A stretch of 64,000 nt of DNA from Thermodesulfovibrionales bacterium. Lineage in GTDB: Bacteria; Nitrospirota; Thermodesulfovibrionia; Thermodesulfovibrionales; Dissulfurispiraceae. Numbering within the stretch: position 1 is the stretch's first letter; each line of letters opens with the position of its first letter. Positions 51,923 to 59,274 of the stretch are shown one piece after another. The DNA lies in contig JAXLZK010000010.1 in assembly GCA_046350935.1 (NCBI GenBank), positions 18,569 to 82,568 on the forward strand, read 5' to 3'. A program made the position numbers and the translations under genes. The notes beneath the pieces are model-generated. The model made no database searches, was not told the DNA's origin, and saw only the letters and a list, made by a program, of their open reading frames with translations.

Positions 51923-51977
51923 TGAAATAAAGAGTGGAGCTGAACGGGATCGAACCGTCGACCTCTTGAATGCCATT
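51923..51977. repeat. Left direct repeat of the integrated element: displaced 3' part of tRNA-Ala plus about 12 nt of flank
   Basis: TGAAATAAAGAG-TGGAGCTGAACGGGATCGAACCGTCGACCTCTTGAATGCCATT matches 59189-59244 except for one A in a homopolymer. It covers tRNA positions ~33-73, from the anticodon loop to the 3' end. Confidence 0.9.
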
Positions 51978-52135
51978 TACCTACATGTATCCCCTGTATT
52001 TTGTCCCCTGTCTCATCTTATTTGCTCTTATCTGTTTCTTCTAGTCCTTACTGATAAATTGTTCCTTCATATTATCCCTTGTTTTACCTTATCAAGTATA
52101 CAAAAACTATACACAACAAAAGGAGAACTAAAATG

Positions 52136-52161
52136 GAGGGCTTCGGCCCTCTCTCTTTTTT
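52136..52161 (+). terminator. Rho-independent terminator-like hairpin at the left edge of the element
   Basis: GAGGGC-TTCG-GCCCTC followed by TCTCTTTTTTG. It overlaps a 19-codon mini-ORF (MEGFGPLSFLLTLGTKCLE) that has an AAGGAG SD. Confidence 0.5.
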
Positions 52162-52162
52162 G

Positions 52163-52190
52163 TTGACTCTTGGGACAAAATGCTTAGAAT
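52163..52190 (+). promoter_or_regulatory. Candidate sigma-70 promoter of the cargo operon
   Basis: TTGACT (52163-68), a 16-nt spacer, then TAGAAT (52185-90). It lies 25 nt upstream of ATG 52216, which has an AGGAGG SD. Confidence 0.5.
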
Positions 52191-52215
52191 AGGTGAAAAC
52201 ACTCAGGAGGTTGCC

Positions 52216-52668
52216 ATGATGAAAGGACTGATTACACTTCTACTATGCTGTATGCCTGTTGTCGCTTTTGGGTTTGATTTGGAGACACTGGACGACGACT
52301 TTGATCCTAGGGATTTAAGGAATTACAAAGGGGCAACACTGGCAGTCTGCAATATAACTGATACCAAGGGAAAGATGGTCACTACTGCCAAAAAAGGGGA
52401 TACCATTACCTTTGCAAACTACTTTATTAAGACGGATTCCGAGCTTGTTGATTATGACGTTGATATAAGTTATCCCACTTCTAACTCAGGAAAATTCAAC
52501 ATGACAGCTAACTACAAAGGACAGTTGTATATAACAGGCAGTAGTAAGATCCAAATTGTTGCTCTATATTTTGTAATCCCAAATAGTTCCTATTCTTCAG
52601 GAACATTGACTGTGACGGCAACTGTTTCCTCATTCGGAACGTGTTCAAAAAGCATTACTGTAAATTAA
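52216..52668 (+). CDS. Cargo gene 1: small secreted protein of unknown function
   Basis: The signal peptide is MMKGLITLLLCCMPVVAFG. About 130 aa of beta-rich, Ser/Thr/Asn-rich sequence follow. I recognise no family. The track ORF starts at 52180. Confidence 0.6.
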   Translation: MMKGLITLLLCCMPVVAFGFDLETLDDDFDPRDLRNYKGATLAVCNITDTKGKMVTTAKKGDTITFANYFIKTDSELVDYDVDISYPTSNSGKFNMTANYKGQLYITGSSKIQIVALYFVIPNSSYSSGTLTVTATVSSFGTCSKSITVN

Positions 52669-52682
52669 TAGGAGGGGATTCC

Positions 52683-53108
52683 ATGAAAAAAGGGGTATCG
52701 GCAGTTCTAATTCTCTTTTTCTTATCTGCATGTGCAACAAGTCCTGACAGCATCCAGAGCGCGTATGTTTCTCCATTGCAGTACAAAGGATATGACTGTG
52801 ACCAGATCATTGAAGAATCCTCGCGCGTGGCCCGAAGAGTAGGCGAGCTGAATGGAAGCCTTACTAGAAAGGCAAGTAATGATGCCGTAGCCACAGGCGT
52901 AGGACTGGTATTGTTCTGGCCTGCTCTTTTATTTATTAAAGGGAACGGGCCTGAAGCGCAAGAATTTGCCCGAATGAAAGGTGAATATGAGGCATTAGAG
53001 AAAACTGCCATAGAGAGGAAGTGCAATACCGCAATGATGCCCAAAATACAATTGCAGCAGCCTGAGCAAGAAAAAGTAAACATCTCTAGTACAGTACCAG
53101 GTATTTAG
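52683..53108 (+). CDS. Cargo gene 2: lipoprotein of unknown function
   Basis: ATG 52683 is preceded by a GGAGGGG SD. The lipobox is VLILFFLSAC. The pattern YVSPLQYKGYDCDQI..GVGLVLFWPALLFIKGNGPEAQEFARMKGEYEALEKTAIERKC matches a widespread uncharacterised lipoprotein family, as far as I remember. Confidence 0.6.
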   Translation: MKKGVSAVLILFFLSACATSPDSIQSAYVSPLQYKGYDCDQIIEESSRVARRVGELNGSLTRKASNDAVATGVGLVLFWPALLFIKGNGPEAQEFARMKGEYEALEKTAIERKCNTAMMPKIQLQQPEQEKVNISSTVPGI

Positions 53109-53227
53109 ACGAGTTTCTATCCTATAAAAAGAGAGAATTACAGGGGATAGGGTAGCTCCCGAAAAGCCGCACTCCGCGGCCTTCCCCTGATCAATTCCGG
53201 AGAACCACGTCGGAGAGGTGGAACGAA

Positions 53228-54235
53228 ATGGAAAAGATTTTTGCCCGCAAGAAGGATTTAATCATAAGAGACCCCGTATACAGGAGTGCTAATAAATTGC
53301 TCGCTAAGATAGTTGCTGCACGGTGTGAGAACGGAGAGAACATTTTAGCACCGCACGCTACGTACGATCCTATTTTTGATGAAATAGGAAGATATTATGC
53401 TACTTCCTTTTGTCCCGATAAAATCCGGGACCAGCATGAAAAAGAGCATCCTGATTATTGGGAGCTTTTTCGGCTAACCGGAGAGATAGGCAGTAAGTGG
53501 CGTGTGCATGTGGAGATCAACTTTGCAGAAAAGGAGATATCTGTTGCGCCATACACCCATGACGAAGCAATATGGGTGGGATGCCCTCCTTTTGATAAGT
53601 ACGCAACGCATAACGCCTCTGTCCACTATCCTCAATTAAAATGGACTCCATACCCCAATCCTTTCAACAAGCCACCAATTTTGGCAGATATCAACGAATT
53701 TACCACTCCAGGGTACAAATGTCCAGGGAACTGGATACCAATTTTAATTAATGCCTCCCGACTGAATTATCAGGACGCTAAAGAGATAAAAAAGCGAATA
53801 TGGGAGTTTGTTGAGAAGCGTTTGACTAAAGGTAAAGACACGTCCCCGGAGCATGAATACCTGGAATGCGCTTTCCTGTACAGCACAAAGGAGAGTACCT
53901 TTAAAAATTATTTGCGATGGTATGATCTTCATGTCAATGAAAAGATAAGTATTCGCTTGATTGCTCACATTGAAAGCAATCCGGGGAAGGCAATAGAAAC
54001 CCTGCAACGACTTAATCACGGCAAAATAAAATGGGGCCTTACCATCGCCGGAGAGGATAAGATTCAAAAAGGGGTAGCCAAGGTCTTTAAAGCAATTCAC
54101 CGGAAAGACTATACAAAAGAGGATGTGATGGAAGAATATAATTGCCCGTCTCATGGAAGTAATTGTCCTCAAAAATGTTCCTACCTGAAGGAATGGGAGG
54201 GAAAGTTCAACCGACTATTTCCAAGTAATATTTAA
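53228..54235 (+). CDS. Cargo gene 3: 335-aa cytoplasmic protein of unknown function
   Basis: Intact ORF with AT-rich codon usage like the rest of the element. There is a possible HTH-like segment (YLRWYDLHVNEKISIRLIAHIE). A C-terminal Cys/His cluster reads NCPSHGSNCPQKCSY. I recognise no family. Confidence 0.55.
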   Translation: MEKIFARKKDLIIRDPVYRSANKLLAKIVAARCENGENILAPHATYDPIFDEIGRYYATSFCPDKIRDQHEKEHPDYWELFRLTGEIGSKWRVHVEINFAEKEISVAPYTHDEAIWVGCPPFDKYATHNASVHYPQLKWTPYPNPFNKPPILADINEFTTPGYKCPGNWIPILINASRLNYQDAKEIKKRIWEFVEKRLTKGKDTSPEHEYLECAFLYSTKESTFKNYLRWYDLHVNEKISIRLIAHIESNPGKAIETLQRLNHGKIKWGLTIAGEDKIQKGVAKVFKAIHRKDYTKEDVMEEYNCPSHGSNCPQKCSYLKEWEGKFNRLFPSNI

Positions 54236-54344
54236 AAGCCCCTGAATTAAAAAGAGAATAAAAGCACCCCCTCTTTTTTTCGGATTTTTCGTAGGTAGGA
54301 GAGCCTGGCTCTCCTGCGAAACGAAACCCGAGAAGGAGAGTGGA

Positions 54345-54599
54345 ATGAAGGAAAAACAGTTTCATACCGGTGATGTCTATGTCGCCGCCGCCGTAACCCT
54401 CCAGATTGGCAAGCCGCCAGAGTTCAAGACAGAGAAACAGAAGGTCCTTTTTGTTTTCCCTATCAGCGATGAGCTGCATAAGGCACTTAACGCATTCAGC
54501 AGTGGTGTCTCACTCAATGCCTATGAATTCGCTCAGATGATTAAGCGCTTGCGCGCCGAAATGCTGATGAGGAAGGGACAGGCAGGGAGTACGAAATGA
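54345..54599 (+). CDS. Small protein, DUF5659-like (from memory)
   Basis: The 84-aa sequence ..TGDVYVAAAVTLQIGKPPEFKTEKQKVLFVFPISDELHKALNAFSSGVSLNAYEFAQMIKRLRAEM resembles small proteins found next to replication genes of phage and islands. Its stop overlaps the next ATG (ATGA). Confidence 0.4.
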   Translation: MKEKQFHTGDVYVAAAVTLQIGKPPEFKTEKQKVLFVFPISDELHKALNAFSSGVSLNAYEFAQMIKRLRAEMLMRKGQAGSTK

Positions 54600-58062: not shown

Positions 58063-59173
58063 ATGGCGAAAGGGATATATAAGCGTGGGAGTATTTTCTG
58101 GATTCGCTATGCAGGACTAGACGGAAAGATTGTTTTTGAAACTTCCGGCTCTAATAAGTTTAAAGATGCCGAAACCCTACTTATCAAGCGGAAGAACTCT
58201 ATCAAGGAAGGTAAGCAGCCGGAAATTAAGAAAATAGGGAATCATACCTTTAATGAGCTTGTCGACCAGTACAAGAAATGGGCTGAACGGCAGCGGAGCT
58301 TTAAGAGCAAAGAGTACCTTATAGATCAATTAGCAGAAAATTTCGAAACCTCCCTTTACGGCGCTTCAACACCATGCTTCTTGAACAGTTCCAATCCGAA
58401 CGTTTACAGAAGGGTAAAGAGCGAGAAGTGAAGCCGGGATATAAGCCGATAGCAGTTACAGGGAATAAGCCTGCTACGGTTAACAGGTTTATTGCTACAA
58501 TCTCTCATATGTTCACCAAGGCCGTAGAATGGGACATGGTGGAAGAGAAACATTAAGACGTGTTCGCAAGGTAAAGCTTCTCCTGAGAACAATAAGCGGC
58601 TCCGATATCTCTCAAAAGAGGAATGCCAAACACTGATAGAGAAGTGCGATACACATTTAAAGCCTATCGTCATTACGGCTCTTAATACCGGAATGCGGAA
58701 GAGTGAAATACTTTTCCTCAAATGGGATAACGTAGACCTGAAGCACGGCTTTATCCTACTGGACATAACGAAAAATGGCGAACGTAGAGAGATACCCATC
58801 AATAATACCCTGAAAGCCTTACTACAGAGCATTACACGGCGTTTAGACGTACCTTACGTGTTCTTTGAGCCTTCCACTGGGAAGCCTTACGGTAATGTGA
58901 AAGAAGCTTCAATACGGCCCTGGAGGAATGCAAAGATACGGGACTTTCATTTTCATGACCTACGGCATACCTTCGCATCTCATCTAGTAATGGCGGGAAT
59001 AGACCTTACGACAGTAAAGAACTCTTAGGGCACAAGGATATTAAAATGACCTGAGATATGCCCATCTTGCACCGGCGCATAAGGTGAAAGCTGTAGATAT
59101 TCTAGATAACGCACTGTCTGGAAAGCCAACTATACAAAAAGTATACAATCAGGTGGTTGGTGGAGAATTTTAA
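58063..59173 (+). pseudogene. int: Tyrosine recombinase/integrase of the element, at least four frameshifts
   Basis: - MAKGIYKRGSIFWIRYAGLDGKIVFETSGS.. is the Arm/SAM-like N-terminus, in ORF 58063..58431.
- ..MLLEQFQSERL..NKPATVNRFIATISHMFTKAVEW is in ORF 58374..58556.
- ..ALNTGMRKSEILFLKWDNVDL..FHFHDLRHTFASHLVMAGIDLTTVK is in ORF 58693..59028.
- ..LLGHKDIKMT.RYAHLAPAH..VVGGEF lies in other frames.
The catalytic R, HxxR and Y contexts are all present. Confidence 0.8.

Positions 59174-59188: not shown

Positions 59189-59274
<86 letters not shown>

Follow-up and report, generated by a model that had tools for sequence, protein, structure and literature searches.

A 7.3-kb island in a contig of a Thermodesulfovibrionales bacterium (Dissulfurispiraceae; JAXLZK010000010.1, assembly GCA_046350935.1) carries at its left end a 2.07-kb stretch with three genes, here termed g1, g2 and g3. 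The window that we analysed comprises 64,000 nucleotides of this contig, and coordinates given without a locus handle are positions in it. We consider it probable that this stretch (52163-54235) consists of three independently exchangeable units in the left arm of a satellite-like island and is not one cassette. The first unit would comprise a terminator, a conserved sigma-70-type promoter and g1, and the second g2 by itself, a helical envelope lipoprotein that would have arrived as a single-gene insertion from a family otherwise drifting as lone chromosomal genes. The third would comprise an int-alpA RNA leader together with g3, with the leader gating translation of whichever gene occupies the slot behind it. 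In functional terms, g1 and g2 would be envelope proteins of the add-on (moron) type, expressed in the integrated state of the island and likely to change the periplasm or outer surface of the host. The g3 product would be a zinc-binding, nucleic-acid-binding factor of the early or replication programme of the island, whose conserved basic C-terminal half would bind a common target and whose variable N-terminal half would set specificity, for example towards a helper phage or a host partner. A speculative defence cassette is in this way replaced by a testable map of two optional envelope genes and a slot gene behind a structured leader.

The three genes do not travel together

Perfect 53-bp direct repeats mark the two ends of the island; the left copy forms attL (51925-51977) and the right copy (59192-59244; 100% identity) is the 3' part of a tRNA-Ala(GGC) gene. 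The preliminary description of this DNA, which was based on the letters and their open reading frames (ORFs), had presented g1, g2 and g3 as a single three-gene cargo. Using tblastn with the three proteins, we found that 0 of 48 foreign loci carry relatives of more than one of them, and the cassette idea therefore fails, because the three genes never co-occur elsewhere, an outcome that the preliminary description had itself named as refuting it. Likewise, a sister island in another genome of the Dissulfurispiraceae (L011 9640-18174; GCA_002634385.1), which lies in a tRNA-Ser gene and encodes an intact integrase of 397 aa and a fused primase-helicase of 663 aa, carries g1 without g2 or g3. The window and L011 have in common g1 (91%), the int-alpA leader and the small terminase subunit TerS (89%), and little else; judged from their sequences, the two islands are mosaics with shuffled modules.

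Base composition also sets this region apart. The GC content is ~0.58 in the flanking DNA and falls to 0.39-0.45 at each end of the island, and the GC content at third codon positions (GC3) is 0.38-0.43 in the g1-g3 stretch, compared with 0.55-0.63 in the replication genes and 0.72 in host genes. The g1-g3 stretch is a variable, low-GC accessory arm of the island. All three genes, and the terminator, promoter, leader and hairpins described below for the window, lie on the + strand.

A structured RNA leader lies between g2 and g3

What had been recorded as a mere 120-nt gap between g2 and g3 is a 119-nt spacer that holds an int-alpA RNA motif (Rfam RF02996; 53140-53203), a three-way junction that matches the full model length (1-71) with 41.4 bits, the gathering score being 35.8, and this is the only copy in the genome. 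Aligned to RF02996, the copy shows the outer stem, the two hairpins and each of the linkers UAG, CGAAAAGC and CCU, and an independent fold of the leader gives the identical three stems. The loop of hairpin 2, ACUCC (53171-53175), is complementary to GGAG at 53199-53202 and also to the g3 ribosome-binding site GGAGAGG (53212-53218). From sequence and fold, this ribosome-binding site forms part of the loop of a small hairpin with the stem CCAC/GUGG (53205-53221), and the ATG follows 9 nt later. The Rfam consensus has counterparts that are likewise complementary, namely the loop CCuU and the tail AgGG. One short stretch displays the loop, a look-alike site close by and the real ribosome-binding site.

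The sister island L011 keeps the leader, with 83% DNA identity over 142 nt and a score of 35.1 bits, just below the gathering score, and the gene behind it there encodes an unrelated 391-aa protein. The leader thus stays while the gene is swapped, and because the sister island retains one and exchanges the other, the hypothesis of a translation gate is directly testable. Going by this arrangement, we find it more apt to regard g3 as filling a fixed slot that follows a structured leader and heads the replication genes than as the third member of a cargo cassette. At locus L046, the leader before the g3 relative carries the loop ACUCC on a different stem (GUUGU/ACAAC) together with a GGAGAG look-alike site, and its real ribosome-binding site lies in the loop of a GCCGC/GCGGU hairpin; with the Rfam model, L031, L046 and L049 show partial int-alpA look-alikes only, and int-alpA was not detected in L033 or in three other genomes with g3 relatives. 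We also considered the 391-aa slot gene of L011 as a distant relative of g3 and rejected it (hhalign probability 0.2%).

The int-alpA motif, which is catalogued but has no known function, comes from a survey of 224 candidate structured RNAs (PMC5737381). Like the catalogued motif, the copy in the window lies within an integrated mobile element and directly ahead of a gene. It differs in its position, ~5 kb from the integrase and followed by g3 and not by alpA (in L049 the integrase gene directly precedes the g3 relative), and in its form, since hairpin 2 is shorter, with the loop ACUCC in place of the consensus CCuU, and the 3' tail is not U-rich. The motif is reportedly described in proteobacteria, and the host here has a GC-rich genome outside that group.

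g3 represents an uncharacterised family of mobile elements

The third gene (53228-54235) encodes a 335-aa cytoplasmic protein of an uncharacterised family of mobile elements. A word-based search returned eight clusters of relatives, and a profile search of 1.8 billion representatives returned 204, while confirmed relatives in the locus search numbered nine in the metagenome collection, one in the viral collection and none in the genome collection. The family is patchy, with four strong matches in 401 genomes. Conservation is concentrated in the C-terminal ~170 residues and in a short N-terminal RKxELIxRD motif, with a variable region between them, and the C-terminal half has a pI of 9.2. The preliminary description had given the protein a possible helix-turn-helix (HTH) and a C-terminal Cys/His cluster. 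Its length and the cluster stand, whereas the HTH was not confirmed (see below). The cluster, C306-x2-H309-x3-C313-x3-C317, places four ligands in a short stretch and conforms in sequence to a conserved zinc-type motif, with C306, H309 and C317 shared by 48 of 49 sequences and C313 by 41 of 48.

The AlphaFold2 (AF2) model of g3 is confident (predicted local distance difference test, pLDDT, 83.9; predicted template modelling score, pTM, 0.77), and Foldseek found nothing at E below 1 for it in PDB or BFVD. The g3 profile had no match among PDB sequences, g3 had none in NCBIfam or PADLOC, g3 and 49 relatives had none in Pfam or PHROGs, and tblastn found no match to g3 in phage records. Comprising ~200 clusters that share a near-invariant Cys/His motif, and with a confident model that matched no known fold, the family of g3 is a defined and unstudied component of small mobile islands. 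Taking charge, helices and motif together, we read g3 as most probably a factor that binds zinc and nucleic acid and has a variable domain for specificity.

We compared the surroundings of the g3 relatives. The order g3, small ORF (68-99 aa) and a primase/helicase of varying type is found in the window and in L001, L004, L031, L033, L048 and L051, and L046 and L008 retain g3 with the small ORF but have no recognised replicase. For the most part these small ORFs are detectably related to one another (DUF5659-like; related copies in L001, L004, L011, L031, L046, L051 and the window), and where contigs reach far enough, Xis, XRE, integrase and usually a tRNA come next. The upstream side varies: there are two unknown genes in L001, a trypsin-like protease in L004, an S1/P1-nuclease-like gene with a TPR/Adhesin_E protein and a DUF4236 protein in L031, and only apparent host genes in L048 (CinA) and L051 (signal peptidase). 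Relatives of g3 are found next to other cargo or right at the island edge. In the viral contig L018, the g3 relative lies beside ligase, clamp-like and ParB-like genes.

Some of these loci show further features. In L008 (5627-10433), an apparent decayed island beside a tRNA-Gly gene has neither integrase nor replicase, and the g3 relative and its small ORF remain there between CcdA/PIN and Phd/ParE toxin-antitoxin pairs. L031 (2544-18538; genome G069) is an island of ~16 kb between tRNA-Cys and tRNA-Gly with two DUF5659-like small ORFs. At the contig end of L046 (5650-5724, - strand) there is a match to a group II intron catalytic domain that narrowly misses the threshold (38.9 bits; cut-off 40).

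g1 is a constrained, predicted secreted orphan with a conserved promoter

The stretch opens with a sigma-70-like promoter, TTGACT-16-TAGAAT (52163-52190), which matches 10 of 12 consensus positions. This element had been described as lying directly inside the left repeat; the promoter sequence is present, but it is located ~185 bp inside the island from the 53-bp repeat and behind an intrinsic terminator (52135-52161), which has a 7-bp GC-rich stem with a UUCG loop (52135-52152) followed by a T-run. From its position and sequence, this terminator would shield the cargo promoter from read-through. At the corresponding site L011 reads ...GGTTTCGGGCC... and then a T-run, a comparison made on sequence and not on folding. 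Promoter-like sites are not enriched in the region, with three found against 4.8 expected in shuffled sequence. However, L011 has both hexamers identical and a spacer that differs at several positions, and a real promoter is better supported because the hexamers are unchanged while the spacer between them is not.

The first gene (52216-52668) has the ribosome-binding site AGGAGG ahead of it; another possible ATG, at 52180, lies within the -10 box. It encodes the predicted secreted, beta-rich protein of 150 aa that had been anticipated, with the signal-like N-terminal segment MMKGLITLLLCCMPVVAFG and two Cys in the mature part; by eye, MMKGLITLLLCCMPVVAFG|FD fits a Sec signal, with a positive residue, a hydrophobic core and a small-residue cleavage site, and it is kept in the homologue. 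A search of 5.8 billion proteins returned a single homologue, 91% identical, which is the first gene at the left end of the sister island L011. The two genes differ mostly at silent sites, with a nonsynonymous divergence (dN) of 0.042, a synonymous divergence (dS) of 1.5 and a dN/dS of 0.027, and since the differences are of this kind g1 is a real gene under strong constraint. We did not find g1 among 400 other genomes of the phylum, it had no match in Pfam, NCBIfam, PADLOC or PHROGs, and its best match among PDB sequences had E >= 0.1, which is noise.

g2 is a predicted lipoprotein gene, probably inserted between conserved blocks

The second gene (52683-53108) starts 14 nt after g1 and encodes a predicted lipoprotein of 141 aa, and the tight pair described previously is confirmed in these respects. 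The N-terminus of g2, MKKGVSAVLILFFLSAC, ends in the lipobox LSAC, which fits the pattern [LVI][ASTVI][GAS]C, and the lipobox Cys (Cys17) is invariant in 86 family members; with a predicted signal peptide ending in a lipobox, g2 has the sequence hallmark of a bacterial lipoprotein. Between two blocks conserved with L011, the window carries 455 bp (52667-53121) that L011 lacks. Because this additional stretch contains exactly g2, the sequence comparison identifies g2 as a single-gene insertion here, or else as a deletion in L011.

Relatives of g2 form 133 clusters at E <= 0.001, those listed having E-values of 1e-24 to 1e-37 and 44-60% identity, and their sources are metagenomes and genomes of proteobacteria. 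In the phylum of the host the family is rare, with four clear matches in 401 genomes including this one; among proteobacteria it is widespread, and it has neither a name nor a known function. Its members keep an AYVSP motif, D67, Cys39, Cys114 and, within a hydrophobic stretch, an invariant F-W-P. They are lone genes in unrelated surroundings, next to ispH/lspA, a protein kinase, mutY/ftsY, an SNF2/Eco57I pair or a MazE/PIN pair. With tblastn, g2 was absent from 50,697 phage records, and plasmids or chromids gave six weak records.

The AF2 model of g2 is confident (pLDDT 82.7) and consists of a helix (39-82) through the hydrophobic stretch and a second helix (90-111). Foldseek against PDB gave generic helical hairpins only, at E above 3, and the g2 profile had no match among PDB sequences. 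Scans of Pfam, NCBIfam and PADLOC gave no match to g2, and in PHROGs there was a single, weak match over the full length, to phrog_13472 (E 9e-4), a family of unknown function. In the same scans none of the three proteins could be placed in a characterised family, as had been stated at the outset.

In L056 (6001-7425), the interval between rne and accC is occupied by a g2 relative together with a MazE/PIN pair, beside a 49-aa fragment resembling the end of accC, and this arrangement suggests a small insertion that duplicated part of its target. Candidate identities of g2 as a unimolecular spanin or as an exclusion lipoprotein (Cor, Llp, TraT) were rejected, there being no Pfam or NCBIfam homology and no copy in the phage records. 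Family scans found no lysis genes in the island.

Evidence against three exchangeable units and competing explanations

Several observations weigh against the reading of the stretch as three units with a gated slot. The loci used to define the position were retrieved by g3 homology, so that they show where g3 lives and not how often the slot holds other genes. The int-alpA motif was not detected before the g3 relatives in L001, L004, L048 and L051, and the fold energy of the leader region in the window is unremarkable (z = -0.97). No separate promoter for g3 was found in the stretch, and g3 may depend on read-through from the g1 promoter. No HTH model matches g3 or 49 relatives and there is no fold match, and for the nucleic-acid-binding role the evidence is confined to charge, helices and the Cys/His motif. 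In the g2 model, Cys39 and Cys114 do not obviously meet, so that the model gives only a tentative topology for this protein.

For the role of g3, we tentatively rank island regulation ahead of helper-phage interference, and the latter ahead of replication assistance. That g3 is an anti-phage or helper-interference effector, and as such exchangeable cargo and not an island regulator, is possible if somewhat unlikely. The slot is exchangeable, as the unrelated gene behind the L011 leader indicates, the N-terminal half is highly variable next to a conserved C-terminal half, and the distribution of the family (four strong matches in 401 genomes) is patchy. Furthermore, a copy persists with toxin-antitoxin genes in the decayed island L008, and that of L004 directly follows the trypsin-like protease gene. 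However, PADLOC has no match for g3 and PHROGs none for 49 members, no nuclease, protease or pore domain is recognisable, and in most loci the gene is placed tightly before replication genes. A bolder proposal, which we put forward tentatively and do not expect to hold in full, is that the g3 family may be a new class of early satellite or phage protein, with an unseen zinc-binding fold, gated by int-alpA, whose N-terminal half would serve as a helper or host sensor or as an interference factor. If true, this would also provide a first function for the int-alpA RNA outside proteobacteria.

For g1 and g2, the competing explanation to their being add-on proteins that alter the envelope in general is that one or both block superinfection, by receptor masking or a block of DNA entry, as Cor, Llp or TraT do. 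Both are predicted envelope proteins with their own promoter at the end of a mobile element, and the weak full-length match of g2 is to a phage family, phrog_13472. We nevertheless regard this as doubtful: neither protein has homology to known exclusion proteins in the Pfam, PADLOC, PHROGs and NCBIfam scans, g2 relatives are missing from the phage records and mostly stand alone on chromosomes amid housekeeping genes, a setting that suggests a general role in the envelope, and g1 and g2 are unlinked elsewhere. The comparison with moron-type accessory genes is itself mixed. The two genes resemble such genes in being att-proximal, low in GC, variable between sister islands and equipped with their own promoter behind a terminator, but they show no similarity to known defence, exclusion or virulence proteins, and the g2 family is mainly chromosomal and not phage-carried.

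Less probable still is that g3 acts as a replication accessory, for instance by binding the origin or loading the helicase, in concert with the small ORF and the primase/helicase. Among the loci whose sequence reaches further downstream, most have the small ORF and then a primase/helicase directly after g3, whatever the type of replicase, and one relative lies in a phage DNA-metabolism cluster (L018). However, the sister island L011 presumably replicates without g3, and the AAA_25 helicase in the window has its own C-terminal HTH. As set out above, we prefer g3 as a slot occupant of the early or replication programme that is most likely to bind nucleic acid.

Very improbable, finally, is one functional three-gene module in which an envelope pair and a cytoplasmic partner serve surface exclusion or abortive infection, for although the genes are adjacent, co-directional and alike in low GC, and satellite ends often hold defence genes, with satellites able to encode defence systems, resistance genes and virulence factors (PMC10085698), none of the 48 foreign loci has two of the genes, L011 has g1 alone, g2 is an insertion, and PADLOC has no match. 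In the defence screen itself, no PADLOC-DB 2.0 family matched g1, g2 or g3 at E up to 0.1, and there was likewise no PADLOC match for seven cargo-position genes from four related islands (L031, L001, L008 and L011). An anti-phage or exclusion role for any of the three genes, which the preliminary description had itself offered as speculation, is pure speculation.

The island resembles phage satellites in gene content

Downstream of g3 the island encodes, in order, an 84-aa ORF, a DnaG-type zinc-ribbon protein, an AAA_25 helicase with a C-terminal HTH, a 141-aa ORF, a small terminase subunit (Terminase_2/TerS), an HTH_17 excisionase-like protein, an XRE regulator and, last, a broken integrase. 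This gene content is the ground on which the island may be called satellite-like. In common with satellites of the phage-inducible chromosomal island (PICI) and phage-inducible chromosomal minimalist island (PICMI) types, it is a small island in a tRNA gene with an integrase, an XRE regulator, an excisionase-like HTH_17 gene, a primase and helicase and a small terminase subunit. Unlike these, it has no known helper phage, its integrase is broken and all of its genes are directed towards int. The g3 family is not known to be among the core genes of described satellites.

The integrase (58063-59170) is split over at least four frames, with its catalytic-motif regions still readable, and given this broken gene the island is probably locked in place. 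Just inside the island ends there is a 21-nt direct repeat, CAAsTATACAAAAAsTATACA (90% identical; 52093-52113 and 59127-59147), and from their sequence and placement the two copies are candidate arm-type binding sites for the recombinase or excisionase.

The 84-aa ORF (54345-54599, + strand) has a weak match to DUF5659 (E 0.0014), which is below the cut-off. It is preceded by a hairpin, GGAGAG..CUCUCC (54298-54314), read from the sequence, and Rfam gave no match for 54298-54340. The 3' arm of this hairpin is also complementary to the ribosome-binding site of the ORF, GGAGAG (54335-54340), so that 54298-54340 shows the same logic of look-alike site, anti-site and real site as the leader of g3.

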